From: Spirochaetia bacterium
Lineage (GTDB): Bacteria > Spirochaetota > Spirochaetia > UBA9216
Direction: 5' to 3'
DNA: 64,000 bases
Assembly (NCBI GenBank): GCA_963677925.2
Contig: CAXXYH010000004.1
Location: 2,144,001-2,208,000, forward strand
Both the position numbers and the translations under genes were made by a program. Below are positions 23,759 through 58,416 of the stretch, piece after piece. The notes under the pieces are model-generated. The model ran no database searches, was not told the origin of the DNA, and saw nothing but the letters and a program-made list of their open reading frames with translations. Position 1 is the stretch's first letter. The number at the start of each line of letters is the position of its first letter.

Positions 23759-23812
23759 TACGGCACGCTTAAAACACAGTGTGTGAGTAGCGAAAAAGAC
23801 TCTGATGAGTCT

Positions 23813-23824
23813 TGTTCTTTAACA
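23813..23824 (+). promoter_or_regulatory. rrn antitermination boxA
   Basis: TGTTCTTTAACA (E. coli boxA is TGCTCTTTAACA); identity with the second operon starts here. Confidence 0.75.
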
Positions 23825-23951
23825 GTTAATTAGGGAAGGAAAGAGAGCCTGTGTTAATAGGTTTGATACTGAGCTACTTGAAAGATAGTAGATAGTGCGA
23901 ACCGTCAATTGTTAGGATTAAAATTGCTAAGCTTTATGTTTAGCAAATTAT

Positions 23952-25835: not shown

Positions 25836-26072
25836 ATAGATATTTAACCGGTAACGGTTTGATATATTAAAGTCCTTTTTGTAGGGCTTTAAGACATAGT
25901 CTCCATAGAGAGATTTAAGTTTGGCATTGTCAAACTTAAGAGAATACGGAATTAAGAATTCAGTATTCTCCGTTCTTTAAAATAGATAAAGACTGTTGAA
26001 AGATTACAGTTTTGAAAACTTATCCATATAACAGGGAGTGGATAAGTATAGGGAAGGGTTAAGAGGTAATAT

Positions 26073-29060
<2,988 letters not shown>

Positions 29061-29203
29061 TATTTCCCCTTAATCAATTCCCGGAGAATTGAGCCAATAG
29101 GCTGCATGGACTAAGAAGTCCTGTGAATAGCAACCTATCGTGCCCAAACTCAATCCCTGTTCATTCTGCAATAGCAGGATGTAAGAATAATTTTGAATAA
29201 TTA

Positions 29204-29313
<110 letters not shown>

Positions 29314-29900
29314 TTTTTTTTATTAATTTAGACCAACGGTCTAAATTAATAAAATATGAGACCTAAGAAGAGCTTGAAGTTTGGTAATACCAAACTTCAG
29401 AGAAAGTTCTGAATATTAAGCGGTTATATAAACCAATAGAAGTCTGGAAGATAACCAGAGATAAATGGCAGCAAAGCCACTTTCTCCGGTCATATGCCAG
29501 GCTTTTTTTTATTAATTTCAAAAAGCAGTATTACAATTCTTAACTTTTAAAATAATCACTCCCGCTAACGCGTGAACTGATGTAACTTTTTTCACGTAAA
29601 ATCTATCTAAACTAATAATTTGCGGGACTACGTTAGGCCCCATAGGCTCACCCTGAAAGTAGCACAGCAGGCTTAGCCTGATGTATAGTAGGTCATTGCC
29701 AGGCTTTTTTTTATTTTCACAGAACTTCTGTTCTGCGAATATAAAATATTAGTCTAAGATGTGGTAAGAAGTTTAGCTTGCTAAACTTCAGAGAAAGTTC
29801 TGAATATTAAGCGGTTATATAAACCAATAGAAGTCTGGAAGATAACCAGAGATAAATGGCAGTAAAGCCACTTTCTCCGGTCATATGCCAGGTTTTTTTT
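29314..29900 (+). repeat. Structured repeat array after 5S (units A-B-A)
   Basis: GGTCAT(A/T)-TGCCAGG + T-tract recurs ending at 29313, 29502, 29704, ~29892 (spacing 189, 202, ~189). Confidence 0.85.
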
Positions 29901-30046
29901 ATTAATTTCAAAATATAGTTAATTTATAGGAAAACAATAACCTCAGATAACATGAACTCTGATTATTTACATTTTATACATTTGTTGACAGTTTAATATT
30001 TACTAAACATAATGAAACAGTAGATTTAAAATTTCTGGAGGATTTA

Positions 30047-31051
30047 TTGGCTAAGCTTAAAGATGTCGCTAAACTGGCCGGTGTATCTGTTGCAACTGTT
30101 TCACAGGCTCTCAACGGAAAATACGTAAACGAGAAAACTAGAGAAAATATTTTAAGAATAGCTTCTGAATTGAAATACTATCCCAATAAAAGCGGGAGAA
30201 CACTGATAACCGGTAAAGCTTCTGCAATCACTCTGGTTATTATTAACTCAACAAAACATGCAGACATTGTTCATGAGAGCACATTCTTTTACCATATAAT
30301 CCAGGGTATTATACAGATAGCAGAAAAAAATCACCATAGTTTTATATTAGATGTTCGTAATTGGGAAGATGATGATCTTATCGCTTATTTTACTCGAAAA
30401 GTCAATGATCGTTCTTCGGACGGATTAATAATAATACCTCAATTCATACATCCATATATATTCATTGAAGCTTTGCAGGATTTTCCGGTTGTTTTTTTAA
30501 ATGCGTCCGATAGAAGAGAAAAGCTAAATACTGTTTATATGGATAACGAGATGGGAGCAGCTCTTATGGCCAGGCATATAATTGCAAAGGGATACAGGAA
30601 TGTAGGTGTAATTCATGGTCCTGAAGATCATTACGACGGTTATCTGAGGAAACAGGCTTTTTTGAAAATTATGAATGACTACGGATTTGGGATAACTGAA
30701 AAATATCAGGTTTATGGAGATTATACTATCGAGAGCGGCTATCTCGGGGCTAAAGTTCTTTTTCAGCAGTGCAAACCTGATGCTATTTTTTGTGCGAATG
30801 ATTATATGGCTGCCGGAGCTATGAGGTATATCAAGGAAAAGGGCCTGCGGATTCCTGAGGATGTTGCTGTAAGCGGTTATGATAATGTGGAGCTTTCCCA
30901 GGCAGTCTATCCCATGCTGACGACCGTCGATGGTGGTATGTTTAAGTTAGGCCGGGCTCTGGCGGAAAATCTCTTTAAGGTTATGAAGACCGGAGGGCAT
31001 AATCTGAATATCCGTCTTCTACCTGAACTGGTAGAAAGAGGAACTGCATAA
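30047..31051 (+). CDS. LacI-family transcriptional regulator
   Basis: LKDVAKLAGVSVATVSQALN; AIFCANDYMA; IPEDVAVSGYD. Confidence 0.95.
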   Translation: MAKLKDVAKLAGVSVATVSQALNGKYVNEKTRENILRIASELKYYPNKSGRTLITGKASAITLVIINSTKHADIVHESTFFYHIIQGIIQIAEKNHHSFILDVRNWEDDDLIAYFTRKVNDRSSDGLIIIPQFIHPYIFIEALQDFPVVFLNASDRREKLNTVYMDNEMGAALMARHIIAKGYRNVGVIHGPEDHYDGYLRKQAFLKIMNDYGFGITEKYQVYGDYTIESGYLGAKVLFQQCKPDAIFCANDYMAAGAMRYIKEKGLRIPEDVAVSGYDNVELSQAVYPMLTTVDGGMFKLGRALAENLFKVMKTGGHNLNIRLLPELVERGTA

Positions 31052-31103
31052 TAACTAAAATGATAAAGAAAAATAAAATATGACAACATAAGAGAAGTTT
31101 TAC

Positions 31104-31164
31104 TTGACACTTGTTATCAATATGATAAAATATTAAAACGTTTTAGATTAACTGAAACGTTTTA
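31104..31164 (+). promoter_or_regulatory. Promoter with two LacI-type operators
   Basis: TTGACA (31104), TG-n-TAAAAT; TAAAACGTTTTA (31134-45) and TGAAACGTTTTA (31153-64). Confidence 0.7.
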
Positions 31165-31186
31165 AATTTGTTTTTGGAGGAAAAGT

Positions 31187-32062
31187 ATGAAAGTAGGCAT
31201 AGACAGTTACTGTTATCACCGTCTTTTTGGAGAGGTATATGATGATCAGAAAGCCCCGACAAAAAATATTGATATGGAATGGTTTGTTAAAAGGGCTTCA
31301 GAACTAGGTGTAGATGGAGTGTCTCTGGAATCGTGTTTTTTCCCAAGTTTCAGTTCAGGATATTTAAGTGAGGTTAAAGGACTGCTTGATGAATATAAAT
31401 TTGAGCGTGTATATGCATGGGGTCATCCTGATGGCCTGGAGGGCGGATACAATGAAGCTGCATTTGACGATATGATGAAGCATATGGAATATGCTGAAGC
31501 GATAGGTGCAGATGTTATGCGTGTCTGCGGTGCAAGTCTGATGTTTCGGTTTCGTGATCATGAGTGGATGCTTGATACATTGACGAGGATGTTTCAGAAT
31601 GCAATGCCGACAGCAGAGAGAAAGGGAATAAAAATAGCCGATGAAAATCATATCGACTTTACTTCCGAAGAAATGCTAAGGCTCATTCATCAGATTAACA
31701 GTCCCAATTTCGGTATTAACTTTGATACTGGTAATTTTATGCGGGTACTGGATGATCCTATTGAAGGAATGAAGAAACTTGCACCATATACATTTTCAAC
31801 GCATGTTAAGGATCTGAAACCTCAGGCAAACTGCGGGGTAGGAAGCTGGCATTTCTTTGCCTGCACACCCACAGGGCAGGGGCTTGTTGATAATCTTAAA
31901 CTTGCACAAATTCTAAAAGATGCAGATTATAAAGGTTTTCTCGCAATGGAAATTGATTACCTTCATGAAGACTACAGAAATGACTGGAGTGATGATGATG
32001 AAGATAAGGCTGTAGAAGCAAGTGTTATAGAACTAAAAAGAATTGCAGGAATCGTCGGCTAG
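31187..32062 (+). CDS. Sugar-phosphate isomerase/epimerase, IolE / AP-endonuclease-2 TIM barrel
   Basis: ENH, FDTGN, THVKD, LAMEI metal motifs. Confidence 0.85.
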   Translation: MKVGIDSYCYHRLFGEVYDDQKAPTKNIDMEWFVKRASELGVDGVSLESCFFPSFSSGYLSEVKGLLDEYKFERVYAWGHPDGLEGGYNEAAFDDMMKHMEYAEAIGADVMRVCGASLMFRFRDHEWMLDTLTRMFQNAMPTAERKGIKIADENHIDFTSEEMLRLIHQINSPNFGINFDTGNFMRVLDDPIEGMKKLAPYTFSTHVKDLKPQANCGVGSWHFFACTPTGQGLVDNLKLAQILKDADYKGFLAMEIDYLHEDYRNDWSDDDEDKAVEASVIELKRIAGIVG

Positions 32063-32071
32063 GAGGCAGAA

Positions 32072-33229
32072 ATGAAATCCATGAACATTGGGCTTATAGG
32101 TTACAAATTTATGGGTAAAGCTCACAGTAATGCCTGGAGAAATTCACCCTTATTTTTCGATATGGAACTTAAGCCGGCAATGAAGGTTGTCTGCGGCCGC
32201 CATGAAGAAGCTGTCAAAGAATTTGCAGAGCACTGGGGCTGGGAAGAAACTGAAACAGATTGGAAAAAGGTCGTTGCACGGGAAGATATTGATATAATTG
32301 ATATTGCCGTTCCTCAGCACCTGCATTATGAAATTGCCATTACAGCGCTTAAAGCCGGTAAACATGTTTTTTGTGAGAAGCCGCTTGCTATGAATTTAGA
32401 GCAGGCCAGAGAAATGGCTGATCTTGCTGCAAAAAGCGGTAAAGTAAATTATGTTAACCATAATTACAGACGCTGCCCGGCAATACAGCTTGCAAAGCAG
32501 ATGATCGATGAGGGAAAAATAGGACGTATCTTTCACTGGAGGGGAGCATATCTGCAGGACTGGATTGTGGATCCCGATTTTCCGCTTACATGGCATCTGC
32601 AGGCTGAGCGTGCAGGAATGGGGCCTCAAGGTGATTTAAACTCTCACAGCCTCGATCTGGCCAGGTTTCTGGTTGGTGATGTTGAAAGTGTCAACTGCAT
32701 GACCGCTAATTTTATCACAGAGAGAGCTTTACCGGATGAAGCTGCCTCAGGTACATTCAGCGGGGCTGCAGGAGAAAGTGGAAAGAAAGGAAAAGTCACA
32801 GTAGAAGATGCTGCATTTATGACGGTTCGTTTTAAAAATGGTGCTCTCGGTTCATTTGAGACTACAAGATTTGCCCCCGGGCGGAAAAACTATAATTATT
32901 TTGAAATATATGGAAGCAAGGGCTCTCTTGTTTTTAATCTGGAAAGAATGAACGAGCTTCAGTATTTTAACCGTGAAGATCCGGATTATCAGCAGGGATT
33001 CAAAACCATACTCGTAACTGAAAGTGTTCATAAATATATTCCGGCATGGTGGCCGCCAGGACATATAATTGGATATGAACATGAATTTCACCATGCTGTT
33101 GTCGATTTTATGTCGGCGATAAATACCGGCAGTGAAATTCGTCCAAATTTTCATGACGGAATGAAAGAACTTGAGATACTGGAAGCCGGATTGAGATCTG
33201 CTAAAGAGGGGCGAGAGATTCAACTCTGA
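32072..33229 (+). CDS. Gfo/Idh/MocA oxidoreductase
   Basis: GLIGYKFMGKAH, KHVFCEKPLA, GDLNSH, WWPPGHIIGYEH. Confidence 0.92.
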   Translation: MKSMNIGLIGYKFMGKAHSNAWRNSPLFFDMELKPAMKVVCGRHEEAVKEFAEHWGWEETETDWKKVVAREDIDIIDIAVPQHLHYEIAITALKAGKHVFCEKPLAMNLEQAREMADLAAKSGKVNYVNHNYRRCPAIQLAKQMIDEGKIGRIFHWRGAYLQDWIVDPDFPLTWHLQAERAGMGPQGDLNSHSLDLARFLVGDVESVNCMTANFITERALPDEAASGTFSGAAGESGKKGKVTVEDAAFMTVRFKNGALGSFETTRFAPGRKNYNYFEIYGSKGSLVFNLERMNELQYFNREDPDYQQGFKTILVTESVHKYIPAWWPPGHIIGYEHEFHHAVVDFMSAINTGSEIRPNFHDGMKELEILEAGLRSAKEGREIQL

Positions 33230-33455
33230 CTGAATACACTGTATTGCGGTATGAAATTGCTGATATGTCTTAGACTTTTTTTATACCGCGATATTGCTGT
33301 AGTTATGATGAGAGTTACAGTAACTTTTGCCTGATTATTTTACATCTCTTCTGTTTTTAACATAAATAGATAGAAATTTTATTTAATGTGGATTTAACGG
33401 GAGAGCTGTGTCCGGAAGAAAAGCGAGTAGATGCTTAAAGCTAAAGGAAGGTATT

Positions 33456-34940
33456 ATGCCGAAATTGCTTGAAATGCAGGACATCTGTAAGAGTTTTTAC
33501 GGGGTTGAGGTTCTGCATTCAATTGATTTTAGTGTCGACAGGGGTGAAATCAGAGCTGTCTGCGGAGAAAACGGTGCCGGTAAATCAACCTTGATGAAGG
33601 TTTTATCAGGTGTTTACGAACAGGATAGAGGTGACATCTTTCTTAATGGGGCCGCTGTCAGTAATTCAGCCGGACCGCTGGAAATGCAGTCATTCGGAGT
33701 TTCAATGATTCATCAGGAGCTGAATCTTTTTGATGATCTGAGTGTTGCTCAGAATATTTTTCTGTGCAGGGAACCTAAATTAAAAAGCGGTCTGATAGAT
33801 TTTAACAGGATGAATCAGGATGCTGCAGAGCTGCTGGACAGGCTTGGGCAGAAAATTCATCCGAGAACGCAGGTTCGTGATTTGAAAATTGCCCAGAAAC
33901 AGATGATTGAAATTGCAAAAGCAATTTCATTCAATGTAGAGCTTCTCATAATGGATGAACCGACAGCTGTACTTACAGGAAAAGAGACCGAAATAATGTT
34001 TAATCTGATGCGGACTCTCTGCAGCGAAGGAATTGCGATCATCTATATATCCCATAGATTGAAAGAAATCACAGAAGTATGTCACTCGGTTACGATACTC
34101 CGTGACGGTTCCTATATAGATACCCAGCGGGTAAGCGATCTTACTGAGAAGAAAATTGCTGCGATGATGGTCGGCAGGGAAGTGCAGGAGTCAAGTGTCG
34201 GCGATTTTAACGGTGAACCTGAAGATGTGATTCTTGAAGTAAGAAATGTATCAGATAGTATGCTCAAAGATCTCAGTTTTACGCTTCGCAGAGGAGAAAT
34301 AATTTGTTTCAGCGGGCTTGTCGGTGCAGGCAGAACAGAATTGATGGAGGTGATATTCGGCATACGGAAGTCTGAACGCGGAGAAATCTTGATTAATGGA
34401 AAACCCGTTTCAGTGAAAAGCCCTATAGATTCAATAAAAGCAGGTATAGGTTTGGTCACCGAGGATCGTAAAAATACAGGACTTGTTTTATGCCGGGATA
34501 TTACAGAAAACACAAATTACGTTTACTGGCGTAAAAATAAGGGCGTTTTCAGGAATCAAAAAAGAACCAGGCATAATACTTCGACCTTGATGAAGCGTAT
34601 GAATATCCGGAGTACCGGATCTGCACAGACCGTTGCAACACTAAGCGGCGGCAACCAGCAGAAGGTTGCTCTGGCAAAATGGCTACTGAGTGATGCAAAG
34701 GTTCTGATACTTGATGAACCTACAAGGGGTGTCGATGTTGGAGCGAGACAGGAAATCTATCAGATAATCAGAGAGCTTGCTGAAAGCGGTATTGGAATAA
34801 TAGTAGTTTCATCAGATATGCAGGAGGTTATGTGCATCAGCCAAAGGGTAATTGTAATGCATGAAGGCCGGAAAACTGGTGAACTTTCATGTTCTGAACT
34901 TGACGAAGAAAAAATTATGTTTCTTGCAACGAATGTATAG
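33456..34940 (+). CDS. Sugar ABC transporter ATP-binding protein (RbsA/MglA type)
   Basis: GENGAGKST, IMDEPT, LSGGNQQK, LDEPTRGVDVG. Confidence 0.95.
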   Translation: MPKLLEMQDICKSFYGVEVLHSIDFSVDRGEIRAVCGENGAGKSTLMKVLSGVYEQDRGDIFLNGAAVSNSAGPLEMQSFGVSMIHQELNLFDDLSVAQNIFLCREPKLKSGLIDFNRMNQDAAELLDRLGQKIHPRTQVRDLKIAQKQMIEIAKAISFNVELLIMDEPTAVLTGKETEIMFNLMRTLCSEGIAIIYISHRLKEITEVCHSVTILRDGSYIDTQRVSDLTEKKIAAMMVGREVQESSVGDFNGEPEDVILEVRNVSDSMLKDLSFTLRRGEIICFSGLVGAGRTELMEVIFGIRKSERGEILINGKPVSVKSPIDSIKAGIGLVTEDRKNTGLVLCRDITENTNYVYWRKNKGVFRNQKRTRHNTSTLMKRMNIRSTGSAQTVATLSGGNQQKVALAKWLLSDAKVLILDEPTRGVDVGARQEIYQIIRELAESGIGIIVVSSDMQEVMCISQRVIVMHEGRKTGELSCSELDEEKIMFLATNV

Positions 34941-34951
34941 CGGAGAGATTG

Positions 34952-35935
34952 ATGGAAGAAATAAAACGAAGAAAAAAATTGGGTTTCCTGGCAATGTGGA
35001 TTTGGAAAAAATACAGTATTTTGGTGGTCTTTGTTGTTATTCTGATTATTTGCGGAATAGCAGCACCCCGTTTCCTTCGTCCCAATAATTTACTGAATAT
35101 ATTAAGAAATACATCCATTGTGGGTATTATTGCTCTGGGCATGACATTTGTCATCATTGCGGGAGGTATTGATTTATCAAGCGGACCTGTTCTTGCGACT
35201 TCCGGAGCAGCTCTGATTGCACTGCAGAAAATGGTAACCGAAACCGGAGAGCCGGCGCTGCCGTTGATTGTGCCGATTATAGTCTGTCTCCTGGTTTCCA
35301 CGTCTATTGGTTTTGCCAACGGATTGATAATTACAAAAGCAAAACTTCCTCCTTTTATAGTAACCCTTGCAGTAGGAATAATCGCACGTTCAGTTGTTAT
35401 GTATTTCTGCCGCGGAGCTACAATAATGGGAAACAAAATTCCGGAATTTACAAATATTGGAAATGGAGCCATTCTCGGAATTCCCATACCGTTCATTTTA
35501 GCAATAATTCTTGCTGTGATTCTTCACATTTCATTGACCCGCTCCAAGTTCGGAACCTATGTATTCGCTGTCGGTGGGAATGAGAATGCTGCAAGATATT
35601 CGGGCATTAAAGTCGACCGAATAAAGATAGTGACATATATGATTGTAGGATTCTGTACCGGATTAGCTGCAATTATTGAGATGTCAAGGATGGCAGCGGT
35701 TGCAGCTACCTCTTCCGGAATGCAGTATGAATTTGAAGCTATTACCGCTGTAATCGTCGGAGGAACCTCGCTTTCAGGCGGTAAAGGCAGATTAATAGGT
35801 ACTATAGTTGGATTTATTATTCTGGGGATTGTTAAAAATATGATGATTATGCTGGATATCTCACCTTATCTTGCCGGTGCCGTTAAGGGGGCAGTCATAC
35901 TTTTTGCAGTTCTTATTCAAAGCAGGGAAAAATAG
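34952..35935 (+). CDS. Sugar ABC transporter permease (RbsC type)
   Basis: GMTFVIIAGGIDLS, GGNENAARYSGI, IVGGTSLSGGKG. Confidence 0.95.
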   Translation: MEEIKRRKKLGFLAMWIWKKYSILVVFVVILIICGIAAPRFLRPNNLLNILRNTSIVGIIALGMTFVIIAGGIDLSSGPVLATSGAALIALQKMVTETGEPALPLIVPIIVCLLVSTSIGFANGLIITKAKLPPFIVTLAVGIIARSVVMYFCRGATIMGNKIPEFTNIGNGAILGIPIPFILAIILAVILHISLTRSKFGTYVFAVGGNENAARYSGIKVDRIKIVTYMIVGFCTGLAAIIEMSRMAAVAATSSGMQYEFEAITAVIVGGTSLSGGKGRLIGTIVGFIILGIVKNMMIMLDISPYLAGAVKGAVILFAVLIQSREK

Positions 35936-36027
35936 AATCAGTTCCCGTTAGCGGGATAAAATTCCGATTTTACATATTGATCCGGATTTTCTGAGACAAT
36001 GATTAAAGATTTATGGAGGAAGCAAAG

Positions 36028-36984
36028 ATGAAAAAAGCTGTATTTTTATTTTGTACAGTATTGATTCTGACGGCCGGTCTGTCAGTATTCGCCGGGGGCC
36101 AGCAGGATTCTGACATGGGTGATGTGTACAGAGTTGCAGTATCTTTTCCCCCTGCCAATAACTCCTGGCAGGCAAAGATGCTTGATTCTGCTCTTGATGA
36201 GGCGGCAAAGGATACAAGGGAATTTCAGTTCGTAATAAAGAATGCGGTAGACGATGCAGATCAGCTGAATATTCTGACAACATTTAAAGAGGATAATTAT
36301 GACATGATTATCTGTCTGCCTGGTAATGGGACTTTGATGACTCCGATCTGTGAGGAAATTTATGATGCAGGAATTAAACTTATGATTGTTGACAGACCTA
36401 TAGACAGCGATAAATATACTGTTCTGTTAGGAGGTGACAACTATTTGTGCGGTTCAAATGCCGCCCGTTATATAGGGGACAGGCTGAAAGGAAAGGGTGA
36501 TATTGCGATTCTCAGGAGTTATGTCGGAATACCTATAGACCTTGACCGGTATAACGGCTTCATGGATGTAATCAAAAAAGAATATCCAGGCATAAAGGTA
36601 GTTGTAGAAGCAGATGGTGAATTTAACCAGGATGCAGGTCTTAATGCTATGAATAATATACTTCCCGCATATGACAAGATTGATGCTGTCTATTGTCAGG
36701 ATGATGAATCCGCCATTGGAGCCATAACAGCAATTGAAAATGCCGGCAGAAAAGATGTTCAGTTTGTGACCGGTTTCGGCGGCTCTAAAACAGCTTATAA
36801 ATATCTTTCTGAAGGTAATCCAATATTTGGAGCTTCAATGTCGTATTGGCCGACAATGGGCGGCCGGGCTCTCGCTCTGGCAAAGTCAATACTGCGTGGA
36901 GAACCCTTTGAGAAGAAAAATCTGGATCCTACATACGTTGTTACCAAAGACAATGTATCGAAATTTATGGATAACACATACTGA
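36028..36984 (+). CDS. Sugar ABC transporter substrate-binding protein
   Basis: FAGGQQD signal; VDR, GGDNY, AVYCQDD (RbsB-like). Confidence 0.92.
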   Translation: MKKAVFLFCTVLILTAGLSVFAGGQQDSDMGDVYRVAVSFPPANNSWQAKMLDSALDEAAKDTREFQFVIKNAVDDADQLNILTTFKEDNYDMIICLPGNGTLMTPICEEIYDAGIKLMIVDRPIDSDKYTVLLGGDNYLCGSNAARYIGDRLKGKGDIAILRSYVGIPIDLDRYNGFMDVIKKEYPGIKVVVEADGEFNQDAGLNAMNNILPAYDKIDAVYCQDDESAIGAITAIENAGRKDVQFVTGFGGSKTAYKYLSEGNPIFGASMSYWPTMGGRALALAKSILRGEPFEKKNLDPTYVVTKDNVSKFMDNTY

Positions 36985-37005
36985 TCGCCTGAGTAAAACT
37001 CATTA

Positions 37006-37032
37006 GCTCAGGCGTTCCGTAACTGCCTGAGC
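37006..37032 (+). terminator. Stem-loop after the SBP gene
   Basis: GCTCAGGC...GCCTGAGC followed by T-rich sequence. Confidence 0.55.
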
Positions 37033-37126
37033 ATTCATTTTTCAGACTAAATTAATTCACCTGTTTTCTAATATAAAACAAAACAATAATAAAAAAGGTA
37101 AAATGATAATAAAAAACAATGAAATA

Positions 37127-37155
37127 TTGACTTGGCTCGGTTAAAGTGTTAGAAT
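37127..37155 (+). promoter_or_regulatory. Sigma70 promoter
   Basis: TTGACT-17-TAGAAT with extended TG. Confidence 0.6.
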
Positions 37156-37222
37156 ATGACAACAAACGTTAATATAAAACAAGTTATGAGGTTATATTTT
37201 AAACACTATATCGGAGGTAATA

Positions 37223-38242
37223 ATGAGTAATAATGTAAATGTGGCTGTGATAGGCTGCGGACGGGCCGGGATGATTCATGCAAGAAATTATGCCGGGTCT
37301 GTCGCCGGATGTCATCTTGCTGCCATGGTCGATCCGGATGAACAGGCAGCTAAGTCCGCAATTGAAGAATTAGGAATCAGCAAATATTATCTCGATTACA
37401 AGGATGCTCTTGGCGACCCCGGAATTGATGCTGTAGTTGTAGTAACGCCTACTGCATACCATAAAGATATAGTGGTGAATGCAGCTTCGGCTGGAAAGCA
37501 TGTCCTTTGTGAAAAACCAATGGCGATGACTGAATCAGAATGCAGCCTTATGATTGATGCCTGTGAAAAAGCAGATGTAAAACTACAGCTGGCATTTATG
37601 AGGCGCTTTGATGAGAGCTTTCAGTATGCAAAGGAAAGAATTGATACCGGAGAAATCGGGGATATTGTATGTGTAAAATCTCTCACTCATGGGCCGTCAA
37701 TTCCGAAGCCATGGATGTATGACATAAAAAAAAGCAATGGTCCCCTGGCCGAAGTCAGCTCTCATGATATTGACGCACTTCACTGGTACAGCGGCAGCTA
37801 CATCAGTGAAGTATATGCAGTGGCTGGAAACTATAGATGTCCGGAAGCTGTCGATGAGTATCCGGACTTCTATGATAATGTCCTTATGAATTGCCGCTTT
37901 AGAAGCGGTGCACAGGGGCTGGTAGACGGAGCACAGGGTGTGCAGTACGGTTATGATTCCAGAGTCGAAATTCTGGGAACAAAGGGGATTATTCATATAG
38001 GAAAGAACCAGAATTACAGTGTTCTTACCTGCAGTCCTGAAGGTATAAGGACCCCTTTTGTAAAAAGCTGGCAGAACCTTTTTATTGACGCATACAGAAG
38101 AGAAGACCAGGCATTTGTGGACTGTATCCGAAATGATACTCAGCCGGTAGTTACCGGAAGGGACGGACTGGAAGCTGTAAAAGTTGTAAATGCAGGAAAT
38201 AAATCTATTATTGAAAAAAGACCCGTAGTATTGGAGGATTAA
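37223..38242 (+). CDS. Gfo/Idh/MocA oxidoreductase (IolG-like)
   Basis: GCGRAG, KHVLCEKPMA, FMRRFD, SHDID, YGYDSRVEILG. Confidence 0.9.
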   Translation: MSNNVNVAVIGCGRAGMIHARNYAGSVAGCHLAAMVDPDEQAAKSAIEELGISKYYLDYKDALGDPGIDAVVVVTPTAYHKDIVVNAASAGKHVLCEKPMAMTESECSLMIDACEKADVKLQLAFMRRFDESFQYAKERIDTGEIGDIVCVKSLTHGPSIPKPWMYDIKKSNGPLAEVSSHDIDALHWYSGSYISEVYAVAGNYRCPEAVDEYPDFYDNVLMNCRFRSGAQGLVDGAQGVQYGYDSRVEILGTKGIIHIGKNQNYSVLTCSPEGIRTPFVKSWQNLFIDAYRREDQAFVDCIRNDTQPVVTGRDGLEAVKVVNAGNKSIIEKRPVVLED

Positions 38243-38246
38243 TATA

Positions 38247-39278
38247 ATGAAAGCGGCAAGATTGCACGGTGTAGAAGATATCAGAATTGAAGATGTTCCG
38301 ATACCTCAGATAAATGAACATGAAGTTCTTATAAAAGTATCTGCATCATTTATTTGCGGAACTGATGTACGTTTCTATAAAACAGGGGCACCTTCCGACA
38401 AGCCATTGATAGCCGGCCATGAGGTCGCTGGAGTTATAGAGAAGGTTGGAAGCAGTGTAGAAGGATATAGTTGCGGAATGCGGGTCGGTGTTGCACCTAA
38501 TTACGGATGCGGTGTCTGTGATCTGTGCACTGCTGGAAATTCGCATATGTGCCTGGATTCACAGGCCTTAGGTGTCTCTGTTGACGGAGGATTTGCTGAA
38601 TATATGAGAGTTCCGGCAGCCGCCGTCCGGCAGGGAAATATCAGCATTATAGATGACAATATCAGTTTCAGCGAAGCCGCATTGGCTGAACCTCTATCAT
38701 GTGTATACAATGCTTATGAAAAAATTGGTATTTATCCGGGCGATCAAGTTCTGGTCATTGGGGCAGGTCCTATCGGAATGATGCATGTCAGAGTTGCTTT
38801 GCTTGCAGGAGCTTCCAGGGTTTATATTACTGATATAAGCAGTGAAAGACTGGAGCTGGCAAAGACCCTTGTCCCGGATGTTGTAACGATTCCTTCAGAT
38901 CAGCTTGATACTGCAGTGTCTGATTATACCGGCGGCCGTTTAATGAATCTGGTAATCACAGCAGCCTCTGTTCCGGCTATTCAGGAATCTGCTTTCAGCT
39001 ATGCCGGATTAAACGGAAGAATTATGTTTTTCGGAGGGCTTCCCAAAGGAAAATCAGCAGTCCGTCTGGATACCAATGAGATACACTATAAACAGCTTAC
39101 TGTAGCAGGAACGACAAGGCAGAGTCTGCGTCAGTACCGTCAGTGCCTGAAACTTATATCGTCAGGGCGTTTAAAAGTTTCAGATCTTATTACATCAAGT
39201 TCTTCGCTAGATAAGATCGAACAGGTCATAAAAGATGTGGCGGCCGGAAAGGGTTTAAAGAGTGTGATAACCGTTTAA
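38247..39278 (+). CDS. Zn-dependent polyol dehydrogenase (MDR, sorbitol-DH-like)
   Basis: ICGTD, GHE, CGVCDLC...C, EPLSC, GAGPIG. Confidence 0.92.
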   Translation: MKAARLHGVEDIRIEDVPIPQINEHEVLIKVSASFICGTDVRFYKTGAPSDKPLIAGHEVAGVIEKVGSSVEGYSCGMRVGVAPNYGCGVCDLCTAGNSHMCLDSQALGVSVDGGFAEYMRVPAAAVRQGNISIIDDNISFSEAALAEPLSCVYNAYEKIGIYPGDQVLVIGAGPIGMMHVRVALLAGASRVYITDISSERLELAKTLVPDVVTIPSDQLDTAVSDYTGGRLMNLVITAASVPAIQESAFSYAGLNGRIMFFGGLPKGKSAVRLDTNEIHYKQLTVAGTTRQSLRQYRQCLKLISSGRLKVSDLITSSSSLDKIEQVIKDVAAGKGLKSVITV

Positions 39279-39321
39279 AATTAAACCTGGAGCAGAACCA
39301 GAGAAAAAGAGGGTATTGTGT

Positions 39322-40833
39322 ATGGTGCAAGATTTACTTTTAGGCATTGATATTGGAACACAGGGGGTTAAAGCTTCTCTATTTGATTCATCAGGAACCT
39401 GTCGAGGTTCAGCATTTATACCATCCAGACTGCATCAGCCGGCTCCCGGTGTTACCGAGGAGGAGCCGGAATTTCAGCTTGATTCTGTCTGCAGGTCAAT
39501 TTCAGAATGTCTTAAGTCTCTTACTGAATTGGATAAAAAGGCCGTCAGATGTATAGCTATAGATGGTCAGATGGCTGGTATTATAGGAATAGATGAAGAC
39601 GGAAAAGCCCTTACTCCTTATGACTCCTGGCTGGATACTCGCTGTGCACCCTACATTGAAAAATTAAAAAACGCTGCCGAAGAGGAAATCATTAAAAAAA
39701 CCGGTAATCCCCCAAGTTTCAATCACGGCCCGAAAATTCTCTGGTGGAAGCATGAACGAAAGGATGTATATAAGCAGGTGGCTTCCTTTGTTCAGCCCGG
39801 CGGTTATGCTGCAATGCGGCTCTGCGGTTTGAAAGGGAAGGATGCATTCATCGATAAAACCTACCTTCATTTTTCCGGTTTTGCGGACAACCGAAACGCC
39901 CGCTGGGATGAGGATTTACTAAGATTATTTGATGTAGAGGTCTCGAAACTACCCCGTATTGTATCCAGCACTGAAATCATAGGTACAATGACAAAGGAAA
40001 TGTCTTTAAGATGCGGTCTGCCTGCTCCTGTTCCTGTAGCTGCAGGCTGCGGTGATACCGCTGCATCATTTCTATCCTGCGGTGCTGTCAAACCCGGAAT
40101 ATGTATTGATGTCGCAGGTACAGCCAGTGTTTTCGCCGCTACAACAGATCGATTCTCCTGCGATCTGAAGTATCAGGCCATGGGCTGCGGAGCATCGGTT
40201 ACTGAGGGACTATGGCATCCCTATGCCTATATTAATGGCGGAGGTATGAATGTTGAGTGGTTTCTTTCTGAAATCATGGGAAGGGATAAGTCAGACCCGG
40301 AAAGGTTTCGCGGCCTTGACAACGAACAACCTGACCTGAGAGATGATTCTCCCATGTTCATTCCACATATGTCCGGCAGGGTGAGTCCCAGTCAGCCTGC
40401 TCTGAAGGGGACTTTTTCAGATCTAAGCTGGCGGCACCGCAGTATTGATATGTTTTTTGCTGTAATGGAGGCTGTAGCTCTTGAATATGGTATTTACCGG
40501 GATGCCCTTGAATCAATGTTACCCGGATATTCTATATCTGAAATGAGAATTACCGGAGGGGGGGAGCGGAACACTGCATGGAAGCTGATGAAATCAGGAG
40601 TCCTTCAGGTTCCAGTTGTCTCAATCAACCAGAATTACGGGGCTCCTATGGGGGCTGCGATTGTAGCAGGCGCAGCCTGTGGAATTCTTACGTCCGCTGG
40701 AAATGCAGCTGAATCATGGATCTCAACCAAAGATGCTGTCATCTGTGAAGCGGAGTACTACAGTCATTTTGAAAAAAGGCTCAAAAAATATCGGCGTCTG
40801 CTTGATACTATGAACAATTTTTACTCAAATTAG
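39322..40833 (+). CDS. FGGY-family sugar kinase (xylulokinase-like)
   Basis: GIDIGTQGVK, WLDTR, GCGDTAA, AGTAS, ITGGG. Confidence 0.92.
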   Translation: MVQDLLLGIDIGTQGVKASLFDSSGTCRGSAFIPSRLHQPAPGVTEEEPEFQLDSVCRSISECLKSLTELDKKAVRCIAIDGQMAGIIGIDEDGKALTPYDSWLDTRCAPYIEKLKNAAEEEIIKKTGNPPSFNHGPKILWWKHERKDVYKQVASFVQPGGYAAMRLCGLKGKDAFIDKTYLHFSGFADNRNARWDEDLLRLFDVEVSKLPRIVSSTEIIGTMTKEMSLRCGLPAPVPVAAGCGDTAASFLSCGAVKPGICIDVAGTASVFAATTDRFSCDLKYQAMGCGASVTEGLWHPYAYINGGGMNVEWFLSEIMGRDKSDPERFRGLDNEQPDLRDDSPMFIPHMSGRVSPSQPALKGTFSDLSWRHRSIDMFFAVMEAVALEYGIYRDALESMLPGYSISEMRITGGGERNTAWKLMKSGVLQVPVVSINQNYGAPMGAAIVAGAACGILTSAGNAAESWISTKDAVICEAEYYSHFEKRLKKYRRLLDTMNNFYSN

Positions 40834-40947
40834 TATATTAATACCAGCAGCAGGAGTGAACTGTGCGTTTGTCTTCTGTTATGATATAAATACCCTGAAT
40901 TAAAAACAGGAATAAGTACAGGGTGGACGGAGATAGGATCTATTATT

Positions 40948-41733
40948 ATGGAAAAAGATACTAACCTCTTTGCAGAAGAGCGAAAGAATAAGATTGTTGA
41001 TTATATCAATGAAAGACGCAGAGTTACTGTTCCTGAACTTTGCGAGCATTTTTCGGTTTCAGGTGCTACTATGCGCAATGATCTTCGTGAGCTTGATGAT
41101 TCCGGAATGATTACCCGGACTCATGGCGGCGCAATAAAAAAATCGCGGACCGGATATGAACCCTTAATTGATAATAGATCTCAGCGTAATCTTGATTCTA
41201 AAAAAAAGATAGCGGAAACAGCTCTGCTGGAGATAGAGGATGGAGATACAATAATTCTTGAGACCGGCACAACCGTAAAAGAACTTGCAAAGGTTCTGCA
41301 TCTGAAAAAAAATCTGACAGTAGTCACAAATGATATAACCATAGCAGCCGAGCTTGAAACTCAGGGCACCTGTGAGGTTCTGATGATTGGGGGATTATTG
41401 AGAACAGGGTTCCACTGTACAGTTGGTTACGGCATGTTCTCAAATATCGGGGCTTTGTCTGTTGATAAGGCTTTTTTGGGTACAAACTCTTTCTCTCTGA
41501 AAAAGGGGGCTAGCACCCCCGATCTGTCACAATCTGAAGTGAAAAGGCAAATGATGGAAATTGCTTCAAAAGTTATCATTCTATGTGATCACAGCAAGCT
41601 TGAGACAGATTCTTTTATAAATTTTGCCCCTCCCGATCGTGTGGACCTGATTATTACGGACGAAATCACTGAAGAGCTTCGCCGCCAATACGAAGAAAAG
41701 GATATTGCAATACGAAGTTATTCTTTTAAATAA
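40948..41733 (+). CDS. DeoR/GlpR-family regulator
   Basis: VSGATMRNDL, RTHGGA, TVVTND, CDHSK. Confidence 0.95.
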   Translation: MEKDTNLFAEERKNKIVDYINERRRVTVPELCEHFSVSGATMRNDLRELDDSGMITRTHGGAIKKSRTGYEPLIDNRSQRNLDSKKKIAETALLEIEDGDTIILETGTTVKELAKVLHLKKNLTVVTNDITIAAELETQGTCEVLMIGGLLRTGFHCTVGYGMFSNIGALSVDKAFLGTNSFSLKKGASTPDLSQSEVKRQMMEIASKVIILCDHSKLETDSFINFAPPDRVDLIITDEITEELRRQYEEKDIAIRSYSFK

Positions 41734-41759
41734 GAGCACAGATCTTGTTTGTGTTTATC

Positions 41760-41807
41760 TTGACAGCTTACAAATCTGTGTTAGCATAATCTGAAACGTT
41801 TTAGATT
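41760..41807 (+). promoter_or_regulatory. Promoter plus LacI-type operator
   Basis: TTGACA (41760); AATCTGAAACGTTTTAGATT (41788-41807), same core as the operators at 31134-31164. Confidence 0.65.
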
Positions 41808-41851
41808 GTTTTCGATCTTCTAAAAAACCTTTATAAGATGGAGTGATATAT

Positions 41852-43174
41852 ATGAAACCAAGACTTTTACCTGTTTATTTTAAAAAGGAGCGGACCTCCC
41901 GCTTTTCAACCCAGCTTTCGGCATTGAAAAAACTGCTTGCGGATTCTGCAGAGTTTCTTCCCGAACAGCCGCTGGGTGCAACGGTGCCTGAATGTGAAGC
42001 GGTATTGTTTCCTGAGATTCTAGGTGAAGCATATCGTTCTGTTGAAGATATCAAATCAATTAATGTTCCTATACTCATTATTACTTCAGAATTTGCAACT
42101 GTTTCCATGTGGGATTGGGAAATCAGTAATTTTTTACGCGGGAAGGGGATTAAGACAGTTACTCCATACAGTCTGGATGAATCTCGATTAATCTGCAGAA
42201 TACTTGGAACCGCCAGGAAAATGTCAGTGTCTAAATTCCTTATCTTTCAGGATAATCCGGGGGAAGGTTTTCAGCCTGAGATTTTCAAATCTTTCTACTG
42301 GTGGGAAAAAGAAAGTGATGAAACTATACTTAGCCGTTTCGGTACAAAAATTGAGAGGCGAAGTCTGAAAGCTCTCGGGGAAAAGGCGGAGAAAGTCAGT
42401 GATGCAGATGCTAGACATCTATGGAACAGCTGGGATTATCCGAAAGTTGACGGTTTTGAAGAGATTAGAGGGCTGAATGCAGCCAAATTTCATATTGCAA
42501 TTACTGAGGAACTTGATTCCGAAGATATTATCGGTATCGGCTCCAACTGCCTGAATGAATCCCACTACTGTAAAACAACTCCCTGTATTACCTGGGACAG
42601 GCTGCTTGAAGATAGAGGATTGTTATGGGTCTGTGAGGGAGATACCCAAACTCTGACAAGTAAATATCTTTTGTATAATTCAATCGGGGCTCCGCTTTTT
42701 ATGACGAATATATATCCCTTTATGATGGGGCAGGCTGCGCTGAAGCATGAAAAGATTCCGTCTTTTCCTGAAATAGTTGATGACCCTGAGAACCATATTC
42801 TTCTTGCTCACTGCGGTTATTTCGGTTTGCTTCCGAGAAAGTTCAGCACAAGCTTTAAGCTTGTACCCAAACAGCTTGCCATAGTAAATGAGAATTCCCA
42901 TATGATTGATTCGAGAATGGCCGTCGGAGCTGTAACTGTTGCTAAAATGAATATGGCTATGAATAAGATTATGTCGATTAAGGGGGAGCTTAGAGGATAT
43001 GTTCAGTATGATTCATCTTCTGACGTAAGAAACGGAGGGATTCTGAAAGTCCAGAACGGCCGCCGGCTTATGGATAATGTTTATTCACATCATGTGATCC
43101 TGATGGAAGGAGACCATACTCAGGCTGTCGATCTAATCGGAAAACTGATGAATCTTGAAGTAGAGGTTATATAA
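41852..43174 (+). CDS. L-fucose/L-arabinose isomerase-like protein
   Basis: WVCEGD (ExD metal motif), AHCG, C-terminal SHHVIL. Confidence 0.55.
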   Translation: MKPRLLPVYFKKERTSRFSTQLSALKKLLADSAEFLPEQPLGATVPECEAVLFPEILGEAYRSVEDIKSINVPILIITSEFATVSMWDWEISNFLRGKGIKTVTPYSLDESRLICRILGTARKMSVSKFLIFQDNPGEGFQPEIFKSFYWWEKESDETILSRFGTKIERRSLKALGEKAEKVSDADARHLWNSWDYPKVDGFEEIRGLNAAKFHIAITEELDSEDIIGIGSNCLNESHYCKTTPCITWDRLLEDRGLLWVCEGDTQTLTSKYLLYNSIGAPLFMTNIYPFMMGQAALKHEKIPSFPEIVDDPENHILLAHCGYFGLLPRKFSTSFKLVPKQLAIVNENSHMIDSRMAVGAVTVAKMNMAMNKIMSIKGELRGYVQYDSSSDVRNGGILKVQNGRRLMDNVYSHHVILMEGDHTQAVDLIGKLMNLEVEVI

Positions 43175-43937
43175 GATTCTGCTTTTTCCTGAATTCAGCC
43201 GGACTTGTTCCTGTTTCTTTTTTGAACAGCCGGCTGAAGTATCCCTGATCCTCAAATCCAAGATTGATTGATATTTCCTTAATTTCAAGTTCATCAGAAT
43301 CTGTCAGAAGACGTTTTGCCCGGTTTATTCTAAGTTCTGTCAGATAACGGCTTGGCGTTCTTCCTGTATTCTGTTTAAAAATCCGGCTCATATATGTAGG
43401 ATTAATTTTAAAATTTTCAGCAAGTTCGGATATTGCAATATTTTCTGTAAAATTATTTTTAAGAAATTCTGTCAGCTGTGTACACAGCTCGCTGACAGCG
43501 GTTTCGGAATTATAAATATATTCAGACTGGCAGAGTGTTTCCTGGTTGCCGGATAAAAGTATTTCCATGCGGGAAAGCAGGGATGTGAGTTCTTCTCTCG
43601 AGGATGGTTTTAAAATATAATCCTTCACTCCGAAATGGATGGCTTTTTTTGCATAACTGAAATCATCATAACCGCTTAAAATTACCACAGGAAGATCCGG
43701 ATGAGTTAAATACAGCTCTTCTATAAGCTCCAGTCCATCCATAACCGGCATTTTTATATCTGTTATCAGCAGGTTCGGAGCCTTTTCAATTATCATATCA
43801 AGTGCCTGCTTTCCGTTGACAGCAGTTCCGGCTATAAAAAAGAGTGGGTTTATTGACGGTATTTTTTTTGCAAGATTATCTCTGATCCTGTACTCGTCTT
43901 CTGCGATGATGACACTGAATTTATTATTAGTCCTCAA
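43167..43937 (-). CDS. YesN-type response regulator (receiver + AraC)
   Basis: AEDE, ITDIKMPVMDG, LSGYDDF, YILKP, GFEDQGYFSRLFKK. Confidence 0.95.
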   Translation of the reverse strand: MRTNNKFSVIIAEDEYRIRDNLAKKIPSINPLFFIAGTAVNGKQALDMIIEKAPNLLITDIKMPVMDGLELIEELYLTHPDLPVVILSGYDDFSYAKKAIHFGVKDYILKPSSREELTSLLSRMEILLSGNQETLCQSEYIYNSETAVSELCTQLTEFLKNNFTENIAISELAENFKINPTYMSRIFKQNTGRTPSRYLTELRINRAKRLLTDSDELEIKEISINLGFEDQGYFSRLFKKETGTSPAEFRKKQNLI

Positions 43938-45750: not shown

Positions 45751-45893
45751 ACGCAGATAATTATAACTCTGTCCTGCCTTTTTTATAAAGTTGAAAATGT
45801 CCATATGGAAGATCAGTTTTGTCCATATACAAATAAAAAGAATCACTATTAAAATAACATAAAATAAGAACAAATGAAAGGAGAAGAAGGCAA

Positions 45894-46901: not shown

Positions 46902-46920
46902 AATCGTTAATTTCAGTTAT

Positions 46921-46943
46921 AGCCCGGATTTTCCGGGCTTTTT
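46921..46943 (+). terminator. Intra-operon terminator/stabilising hairpin after the SBP gene
   Basis: AGCCCGGA-ttt-TCCGGGCT + TTTT. Confidence 0.7.
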
Positions 46944-46963
46944 GGTATAGGAGAGAGGAAACA

Positions 46964-54060: not shown

Positions 54061-57048
<2,988 letters not shown>

Positions 57049-57191
57049 TATTTCCCCTTAATCAATTCCCGGAGAATTGAGCCAATAGGCTGCATGGACT
57101 AAGAAGTCCTGTGAATAGCAACCTATCGTGCCCAAACTCAATCCCTGTTCATTCTGCAATAGCAGGATGTAAGAATAATTTTGAATAATTA

Positions 57192-57301
<110 letters not shown>

Positions 57302-58335
57302 TTTTTTTTATTAATTTGGTTTTCATAACCAAATTAATAAAAATACAGTCTAAGATAACATAAGAAGTTTAGCTTGCTAAACTTCAGAGATTGCTCATGA
57401 TTAAAATATTGGGTTAAAAGAAGAACAGAGTCTGGAAGGAATACTGGAATAAAAAGCTGTCTGCAGCTATCTCCGGTCATATGCCAGGCTTTTTTTTATT
57501 AATTTCAAAAAGCAGTATTACAATTCTTAACTTTTAAAATAATCACTCCCGCTAACGCGTGAACTGATGTAACTTTTTTCACGTAAAATCTATCTAAACT
57601 AATAATTTGCGGGACTACGTTAGGCCCCATAGGCTCACCCTGAAAGTAGCACAGCAGGCTTAGCCTGATGTATAGTAGGTCATCGCCAGGCTTTTTTTTA
57701 TTAATTAAGTCTAAAGACTTAATTAATAAAATATTAGTATAAGATGTGGTAAGAAGTTCTGCAAAGCAGAACTTCAGAGAAAGTACTTAAGTAAAATTGA
57801 GTACTCAGAGATAATAGATAGTCTGGAAGGAATGCTGAGAATAAATAGTAGCAAAGCTACTTTCTCCGGTCATAACCCGCCAGGCTTTTTTTTATTAATT
57901 TGGTTTTGTAAACCAAATTAATAAAAATACAGTCTAAGATAACATAAGAAGTTTAGCTTGCTAAACTTCAGAGATAGCTCATGATTAAAATATTGGGCTT
58001 AAAAGAAGAACAGAGTCTGGAAGGAATACTGGAATTAAAAGCTGTCTGCAGCTATCTCCGGTCATATGCCAGGCTTTTTTTTATTAAATCGAATTTACAA
58101 ACTTTGTTATTCTTAACCCTTAAACCAAATACTCCTGGTAACGAGAGGACTGACATTCCTGATATTCACGAAATGATTTATATAAAACTTAAATGTTAGC
58201 GGGACTGTGTTTGGCTATGCATTTGTGCCCGAATAAGCAGCACAGCAGGCAACGCCTGATGTATAGTAGCTGGCATGTTCAGTGTTAACGAACTGGAGAA
58301 GTTTCTATGGAACTTCCTTTTACCGTTTTTTTATT
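57302..58335 (+). repeat. Structured repeat array after 5S (units A-B-A-A-B')
   Basis: GGTCAT..GCCAGGC + T-tract ends at 57301, 57489, 57691, 57885, 58074 (spacing 188, 202, 194, 189); diverged B' unit to ~58270. Confidence 0.85.
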
Positions 58336-58416
58336 AGGTTAAATTCCTTTGTCAAAAAATAGATTATGTTGTAATTATCTAGCTAAATATAATATAGTGT
58401 TTTATAGCTTTTGAAG

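Follow-up and report, generated by a model that had tools for sequence, protein, structure and literature searches.

The rrnB operon (rrn, ribosomal RNA operon) of Escherichia coli is followed by two tandem intrinsic terminators, T1 and T2. A second E. coli example is 3'ETS-leuZ, a small RNA that originates from an external transcribed spacer (ETS) and is released by RNase E. The present analysis concerns the sequence behind the 5S rRNA genes in a 64,000-nt stretch of a Spirochaetia genome (GenBank assembly GCA_963677925.2, contig CAXXYH010000004.1; genome code G000), hereafter called the window, in which short modules with the ends of 5S rRNA, termed mini-5S or minis, follow the 5S genes. In another spirochaete, Borrelia burgdorferi, a tandem 23S-5S duplication is described (PMC3037291).

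Both the rrnB terminators and the minis are reiterated stable stem-loops with U-runs that lie directly 3' of 5S in the strongest operons. At the locus described here, in contrast, the stems copy helix I of 5S rRNA, the 5S itself abuts a U-run, and the units that contain the minis add a spacer-like covarying hairpin and a palindrome of U-run and A-run; the function in termination is one that we infer. With RNAs of the 3'ETS-leuZ type the locus shares a predicted structured RNA in the 3' trailer of a stable-RNA operon, the lack of a promoter and a terminator end, whereas the RNase E that releases the E. coli RNAs was not found in G000. The Borrelia duplication is similar in that a distal rrn part is duplicated in a spirochaete, the units described here consisting of a spacer-like leader and a 5S-like end, the composition expected if such a duplication had shrunk. 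These units are, however, about 190 nt long and free of 23S sequence, and the resemblance is one of layout. Terminators and trailers of rrn operons are a known kind of element; for modules made from 5S ends that follow a bacterial 5S gene, full-text searches of the literature brought up no earlier account. Judged from the sequence, we lean towards reading the minis as intrinsic terminators of 5S origin, present in series in the rrn trailer, where they would also serve as processing landmarks.

Mini-5S modules behind the 5S rRNA genes

The window contains two complete rrn operons on the + strand, each with 16S, one tRNA, 23S and 5S, and a third operon is located on the same contig of the genome (5.04 Mb, 4 contigs, 99.6% complete). 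Five minis, all reported in a preliminary description of the window, are present at the following positions.

29203..29314, + strand, 5S rRNA gene of operon A (Rfam RF00001, 97.5 bits, and sequence), T-run directly after it, to 29321
29441..29503, + strand, mini-5S m1, hairpin form (sequence, fold, genome search), T-run to 29510
29832..29894, + strand, mini-5S m2, ending in CCAGGTT (sequence, fold, genome search), T-run to 29900
57191..57302, + strand, 5S rRNA gene of operon B (RF00001), T-run to 57309
57429..57490, + strand, mini-5S m3 (sequence, fold, genome search), T-run to 57497
57820..57886, + strand, mini-5S m4, orthologue of the mini in the sister species G001 (sequence, fold, alignment), T-run to 57893
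58014..58075, + strand, mini-5S m5 (sequence, fold, genome search), T-run to 58082

The minis start with AGTCTGG and end with CCAGGCT (CCAGGTT at 29888-29894), as do the 5S genes of both operons (helix I strands AGTCTGG... and ...CCAGGCT). The inner hairpins named in the preliminary description are likewise all there; the T-run after each module, the flanking palindromes and the leader hairpin had been overlooked. AGTCTGG occurs 15 times in the window (5.5 expected), a count of at least 15 being reached in none of 100 shuffles. When the whole genome was searched for AGTCTGG, 30-125 nt, CCAGGYT and then T's, the only matches were the three 5S genes and six minis. All six minis, together with three elements of a second type (X elements), are found directly behind the three 5S genes, in the orders 5S-X-M, 5S-M-X-M and 5S-M-X-M-M-X' (M, mini), i.e. 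with 1, 2 and 3 minis per operon. Three other CCAGGCTTTTTT sites and one similar GGTCAT..CCAGGCT site in the genome lie in unrelated sequence and are devoid of module features. A run of T7-8 follows right after CCAGGY, closing T counted, in all 12 modules that close with the 5S 3' strand (three 5S, six minis, three X elements), and the next letters are mostly ATTAATT.

In predicted folds, the ends are paired in 5/5 window minis (5 bp in the copy with CCAGGTT, 7 bp in each of the others) and enclose a long irregular hairpin. The folding energies range from -20.5 to -24.5 kcal/mol with z-scores of -2.7 to -4.0, and 0-1 of 200 shuffles are as stable. The sixth mini, m6, is located outside the window behind the third operon (locus L006, C4:1264656-1264738). 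It is 83 nt long and differs from m1 in a single base and in having an additional 20-nt hairpin arm, which turns the hairpin into a three-way junction; its ends are unpaired in the minimum-energy fold. This third arm is also found in the same-genus genome G001 and in one copy of G007, a genome of another genus, and is deleted in five G000 copies belonging to three sequence types. By parsimony it was probably lost at least twice, and the parts of a mini that seem indispensable are the closing stem, one inner hairpin and the U-run.

The interior had been described as co-varying. Strict positional covariation turned out to be modest, and the interior is better seen as different hairpins swapped in, the capping hairpins differing among the three G000 sequence types. 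Within the minis 85.5% of cells are paired, compared to 33-52% when the partner is slid. Double changes occur in 4 of 28 pairs; among 500 shuffles, 10 contain at least as many doubly changed cells as the real sequences.

The resident 5S and the minis have the 5' 7 nt and the 3' 15-16 nt in common, the ends pair as helix I does, and some copies are three-way junctions like 5S itself. The differences concern length (62-83 nt versus 112 nt), the missing loop C, helices III-V and loop E, and the GGTCAT stretch, which is paired within arm 2 in the predicted folds of the minis and not part of loop A. Loop C and helices IV/V, whose absence had been noted before, appear as gaps in an alignment to the real 5S, and helix III is missing as well. 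Retention of helix I stands, too; the further claim that part of helix II persists in the interior is suggestive only. In comparisons of half-interiors with 5S, one of six was significant, namely the 3' half of m1 (13 of 1000 shuffles), which matches the 3' strand of helices III/II, and the other five were not. The forms are graded from three-way junction over hairpin to a 31-nt "micro-5S", and this series and the common ends bear out the derivation from 5S. The minis thus appear to be internally deleted derivatives of the 5S gene. They are distant from it in terms of models: RF00001 (gathering threshold 38 bits) reports only the two real 5S genes in the trailer regions 29050-30050 and 57040-58420 and no mini even at E<=10, and a covariance model of the minis (R1) scores the real 5S at only 20 bits.

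Leaders, palindromes and X elements

Each mini is the last part of a unit of about 190 nt that consists of an AT-rich palindrome (T-run included), a leader hairpin and the mini. The remaining features of the two trailers and their counterpart in the 16S-23S spacer are as follows.

25909..25968, + strand, pair of hairpins, paralogues of the unit leaders, within the operon A 16S-23S spacer
29318..29354, + strand, AT-rich perfect palindrome (TTTTATTAATTTAGACC AAC GGTCTAAATTAATAAAA) including the last T's of the 5S T-run (sequence)
29355..29440, + strand, leader of unit U1 with covarying hairpin 29376-29403, a paralogue of the internal transcribed spacer (ITS) hairpin 25909-25944
29558..29705, + strand, X element X1, T-run to 29712
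29709..29746, + strand, imperfect AT-rich palindrome including the T-run, kept in G001 (sequence)
29747..29831, + strand, leader of unit U2, hairpin 29768-29794
57306..57342, + strand, AT-rich palindrome including the T-run (sequence)
57343..57428, + strand, leader of unit U3, hairpin 57364-57390
57545..57692, + strand, X element X2, built like X1, with GGTCATCGCCAGGCT at its 3' end; T-run to 57699
57696..57731, + strand, AT-rich palindrome including the T-run (sequence, unit fold)
57732..57819, + strand, leader of unit U4 with two hairpins, one of them at 57753-57780
57890..57926, + strand, AT-rich palindrome including the T-run (sequence, unit fold)
57927..58013, + strand, leader of unit U5, hairpin 57948-57974
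58131..58332, + strand, divergent X element X3 without the 5S 3' end, with its own closing hairpin 58295-58317 and T7

Within the palindrome, which spans 36-38 nt and has a centre that varies between units, the previous module's T-run is paired with an A-run further downstream. After the palindrome come a conserved GTCTAAGA-like motif and the leader hairpin (GAAGT...ACTTCAGAGA); some units add a second hairpin before the mini. A whole unit is predicted to fold into five separate hairpins (z -9.7).

In contrast to the minis, the leader hairpin carries a clear covariation signal. Among eight sequences, double changes are found in 5 of 11 pairs, 92% of cells are paired, and the score is reached in none of 500 shuffles. 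Leader and spacer hairpins are related with a blast E-value of 6e-5, and 0-3 of 300 shuffles reach their local alignment scores. Both hairpins of the U4 leader align to the two ITS hairpins upstream of GTTCTTTAAAA, an element that we label boxA-like. The covariation of the leader hairpin and its paralogy to a hairpin of the spacer, whose transcription is certain, were counted in favour of a transcribed structure, and from its sequence each unit looks like a shrunken copy of spacer plus 5S. Hairpins in the spacer and in the leader of the rrn operon itself lie at 25909-25984 and 23790-23830 of the window and are followed by GTTCTTTAAAA or GTTCTTTAACA; these are presumably boxB/boxA-like antitermination elements. 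The trailer units copy the spacer hairpins without an intact GTTCTTTAA element.

The X units alternate with the mini units and start with a 13-nt box that is an exact antisense of a 5S segment; in X1, the box CTCCCGCTAACGC (29559-29571) is antisense to 5S GCGTTAGCGGGAG. X1 ends in the 31-nt micro-5S (29675-29705), the last 20 nt of which are identical to 5S, and X3 is the orthologue of the X element in G001. X elements measure about 150-230 nt and were found in the window (29558-29705, 57545-57692, 58131-58332) and at loci L005, L002:188-382 and L139 (three copies). The 13 nt complementary to the box belong to the helix IV/V region of 5S, and an internal sense copy within the element is able to pair with the box. 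Usually the element ends in a mini- or micro-5S and a T-run, and the cores of the G000 and G001 elements share about 92% identity.

A promoter scan of the trailers found no sigma-70 promoter consistent across units, so that the units are probably read only from the rrn promoters. Weak sigma-70-like sites occur in U1 (TTTAGA, 17 nt, TAAAAT) and inside X (TTCACG, 17 nt, AATAAT). Among sequencing runs, one of DNA and none of RNA is listed for the stretch 57304-58340. The units contain no conserved open reading frame (ORF), only ORFs of 31-72 aa that cross module borders, and a 1-nt indel between U3 and U5 early in the 72-aa frame means that this frame is not kept between paralogous units.

Distribution and conservation in Spirochaetia

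Of the 21 nearest genomes, 13 (G000 included) have an assembled 5S. At least one unit follows all eight complete operons of three of these genomes: three in G000, three in G001, each with one unit and a three-way-junction mini, and two in G007, where one mini is a hairpin form with AGCTTGG and the other a three-way junction. The ends are paired in the predicted folds of the G007 copies, in the G001 copy except for single unpaired positions, and in both copies of G061, a genome of another family. G010 has an X element.

The covariance model R1 matches 3 of 11 genomes that represent the family and, with it, the entire order, and 4 of 151 genomes sampled from the class, the fourth being G061, on a contig with two units. 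Because R1 depends on the AGTCTGG stem, 57 further genomes of the class were read over 700 nt downstream of one 5S each, and a direct repeat of the 5S end plus T's was present in six. In five of them (G159, G172, G045, G161 and G081, none of family f1), the repeat forms the base of a hairpin or three-way junction followed by T4-8, and the closing 5' strand matches helix I of the genome's own 5S (e.g. GGCCCCGGTGGC...GCCGCCGGGCC in G081). Similar modules are thereby found in G001, G007, G061 and five other Spirochaetia families. Mini-5S modules are recurrent in Spirochaetia, and the stem always tracks the resident 5S.

Metagenome contigs contain further variants (L111, L126, L157), X elements (L139) and a scrambled pseudo-5S (L153). 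A wide pattern scan of genome contigs returned 51 stretches, four of them spirochaetal. True modules are present in three of these four (L059, L061, L080); the fourth (L066) has no 5S or module features, and the remaining 47 stretches, all below 32 bits with R1, were treated as chance. In a metagenome scan for the 5S end, at least 115 stretches were obtained; a second CCAGGYTTTT downstream was seen in 5 of 80 examined, and R1 matches there are weak.

At least five T's lie within a few nt of the 5S end at 24 of 24 5S loci in the 13 genomes and at 55 of 57 further loci, one per genome. With a T-run at nearly all 5S ends sampled in the class, helix I plus U-run looks like the regular end of rrn transcription, which suggests that helix I of Spirochaetia 5S doubles as the terminator stem of the operon. 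In loci L001-L024 and L205-L264, the 5S is almost always followed by T5-9 within 0-4 nt; a palindrome in which the U-run is paired with an A-run often comes next, and sometimes the 3' strand of 5S is inverted too (L205, L230, L236, L244).

Conservation between G000 and G001 was compared along the operon. The last 1300 nt of 23S are 99.7% identical, and the distal 23S-5S spacer is unalignable. In the neighbouring orthologous gene (window 58429), 60 of 89 four-fold sites are identical (67.4%). The distal leader of U4 together with m4 differs from the G001 unit at 7 of 102 nt (93.1% identity), the proximal leader of U1 at 6 of 62. The three differences within the mini map to the capping loop (one) and to the boundary of unpaired and paired positions on the 5' side of arm 2 (two), and purine-rich unpaired stretches of the leader are unchanged. 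A LacI-like gene was dropped as neutral control, its G001 copy losing the frame after about 30 codons.

These comparisons bear on the possibility that the units are neutral debris, i.e. functionless remnants, in the course of decay, that stem from tandem duplication of the 5S end or of 23S-5S and are similar through gene conversion only. Debris would account for the variable number of minis per operon, for the G001 unit being a mosaic of different G000 units, for the scrambled 5S pieces in X elements and contig L153, for the repeated loss of the third arm and for interiors whose similarity to 5S is mostly not significant, and a tandem 23S-5S duplication is known from Borrelia (PMC3037291). It does not sit well with a unit behind every complete operon of three genomes, with an identity of 93% where four-fold sites have 67% and the distal spacer has diverged beyond alignment, with stems and U-run kept in every copy, or with compensatory changes in the leader hairpin. 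Furthermore, gene conversion with 5S cannot keep interiors and leaders because these have no counterpart in 5S. Plain decay, against which the preliminary description had already argued from the retained pairing, is therefore disfavoured, and we regard debris as a decidedly unlikely explanation.

Another conceivable origin would be the integration of small elements at the 5S 3' end, as at tRNA genes, each duplicating that end so that the repeats are copies of an attachment site. Every unit is indeed bounded by the same 22-30-nt 5S end and T-run. Attachment-site duplication, however, would not be expected to supply the 5' strand of helix I, which the units also hold. They are moreover non-coding, 190-250 nt long and free of a conserved ORF, the leader is paralogous to the spacer of the operon itself, and the same units occupy the same place in the sister species and in other genera. 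No recombinase gene was seen in the stretches read, in which no search for recombinase families was made. Insertion scars are accordingly a very improbable source of the units.

Proposed termination and processing, and candidate small RNAs

From the anatomy, location, folds and conservation of the modules, the covariation of the leader and the spread across the class, we infer termination, cleavage and an evolutionary route as follows. The parts kept in the minis, two strands of helix I held together by a short hairpin or two with U7-8 immediately behind, would be those that an intrinsic (Rho-independent) terminator needs, and in this lineage of spirochaetes the minis would make up a conserved trailer at the 3' end of the rrn operons. 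Helix I of 5S and its abutting U-run would act as the first terminator of the operon. A polymerase reading through it would meet one to three more modules of helix I plus U-run (minis, X elements), which may serve as fail-safe terminators and shield the downstream genes from the very strong rrn transcription. In read-through RNA, the U-run would pair with the downstream A-run into a 16-18-bp AT-rich stem, a plausible site for RNase III, and cleavage there may trim the 3' end of 5S and separate the units; RNase III is present in G000. The repeated 22-30-nt ends (CCAGGCT, T8, ATTAATTT) would allow duplication, unequal crossing-over and gene conversion, through which the units probably arose and stay alike. 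Duplication and gene conversion between unit ends would explain the differences in copy number, the mosaic units and the tracking of the 5S stem.

Several results agree with a role in cis. A stable stem with U-run is present, as helix I has 7 bp (4 G-C, 2 A-U, 1 G-U) and in each of the 12 modules the T7-8 run begins with the final base of this stem. The T-runs, the flanking palindromes and the leader hairpin point to termination and processing in the rrn trailer, and the lack of a consistent promoter and the position only behind 5S fit this role. Loss of the third arm and the 31-nt micro-5S at the end of X elements indicate that only helix I is indispensable.

Other observations weigh against terminators and processing landmarks. 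The loop is not the short one of textbook terminators, since the closing stem encloses 48-69 nt of further hairpins, and a terminator scan of the + strand left the modules unflagged because their loops exceed its 3-8 nt limit. In the control region 30000-49999, terminator-like sites are not enriched (16 versus 14.9 expected), so that reliance of this organism on canonical intrinsic terminators is not established. Termination alone also leaves two things unexplained, the conserved leader with its unchanged unpaired purine-rich stretches and the copying of 5S helix I by the stems. The U-run is at the same time one half of the palindrome and could belong to a processing stem rather than a terminator. 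Covariation inside the minis is modest, and the test for selection uses one control gene and the best-matching paralogue.

The preliminary description had proposed the minis as substrates or decoys of the 5S maturase or of the ribosomal protein uL18. We found no support for either proposal. RNase M5 (TIGR00334, which matches the controls Bacillus subtilis and Lactococcus lactis) and RNase E/G (TIGR00757) gave no match in the 99.6%-complete genome G000. The minis lack the parts of 5S that we take to be bound by uL18/uL5 (helix II-III and loop C) and by bL25 (loop E).

In a wider form of this idea, read-through RNA would be cut at the palindromes into stable trans-acting small RNAs of leader plus mini, about 150-190 nt (or about 60 nt) in length. 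Their amount would follow rRNA synthesis, and they would serve as decoy or sponge for 5S-binding proteins, an end-maturation factor or another partner. Such RNAs would explain why conservation extends beyond the stems, with unpaired leader stretches identical between G000 and G001 (67% at four-fold sites), why the leader hairpin covaries and the units fold so stably (z -9.7), and why trailers of other families contain a conserved inner motif. A shared recognition factor would likewise explain stems that copy the resident helix I across families, yet gene conversion explains this tracking equally well. Besides the two RNases not found and the missing protein-binding parts, on the assumed sites, Hfq was looked for in G000 and not found, the Rfam 5S model misses the minis, no unit has a promoter of its own, and the third arm was repeatedly lost. 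Trans-acting trailer RNAs thus seem unlikely, if worth keeping in mind.

Two specific candidates were rejected. CsrA is present in G000, and a sponge for it is unlikely with GGA not enriched in the two arrays (3 versus 5.9 expected and 13 versus 11.3 expected). The leader hairpins score 22.1 and 19.8 bits as whalefall-1 RNA (RF01762; threshold 37), with no match at E<=0.05 in 11 related loci. Apart from this sub-threshold similarity, Rfam found only rRNA and tRNA in the window (at gathering score), in both trailers (E<=10) and in the 11 related loci (E<=0.05).

The inner motif of other families consists of a stem, GUACCGCAG, a hairpin, GAGGAAC and the closing stem strand. This structured motif occurs behind the 5S in six genomes, which represent four or more other families of Spirochaetia (loci L010, L228, L230, L236, L252 and L255 in G018, G172, G045, G173, G054 and G102, respectively). 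Its outer stem covaries, G173 has three tandem copies, and it is not found in the G000 trailers.

A related and rather improbable possibility, again judged by sequence, is that the mini-5S units form a class-wide functional RNA family of Spirochaetia that is made by read-through in proportion to rRNA synthesis and acts as switch or decoy. The stem would then have to match 5S helix I because the same factor recognizes both or because of alternative pairing, in which the 5' strand of a mini has two possible partners, the 3' strand of that mini, giving a terminator, or the prior module's 3' strand and U-run, through the long palindrome. The trailer might in this way sense the formation of helix I, or act as a decoy that couples end-maturation of 5S or the supply of ribosomal proteins to rRNA output.

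If the minis are indeed terminators and processing landmarks, a structured stable-RNA gene would have been recycled into regulatory signals, with terminators and processing sites rebuilt repeatedly from 5S ends. This would offer a testable route to the formation of the 5S 3' end in an organism where neither RNase M5 nor RNase E/G was found. For genome annotation, the minis are a recurring unannotated RNA element, copies of which could be miscalled as partial 5S genes. Should the units be stable RNAs, they would represent a novel small-RNA class linked to growth rate.

Further observations concern the surroundings of the 5S genes. In G008 (L013), a leader and the start of a mini are followed by what appears to be an inserted transposase-like gene. 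Transposase-like ORFs behind 5S or in the trailer, recognized by reading the sequence and without a family search, are found at this locus and at L010, L019 and L024 of G018, and the trailer seems to be a frequent landing site of insertion sequences. The LacI-type regulator next to operon A (window 30047 onward) appears frame-shifted or replaced in G001 (L005:2230 onward). Finally, G021 has two tandem 5S genes about 200 nt apart (C29:20-131 and 220-331, locus L233).

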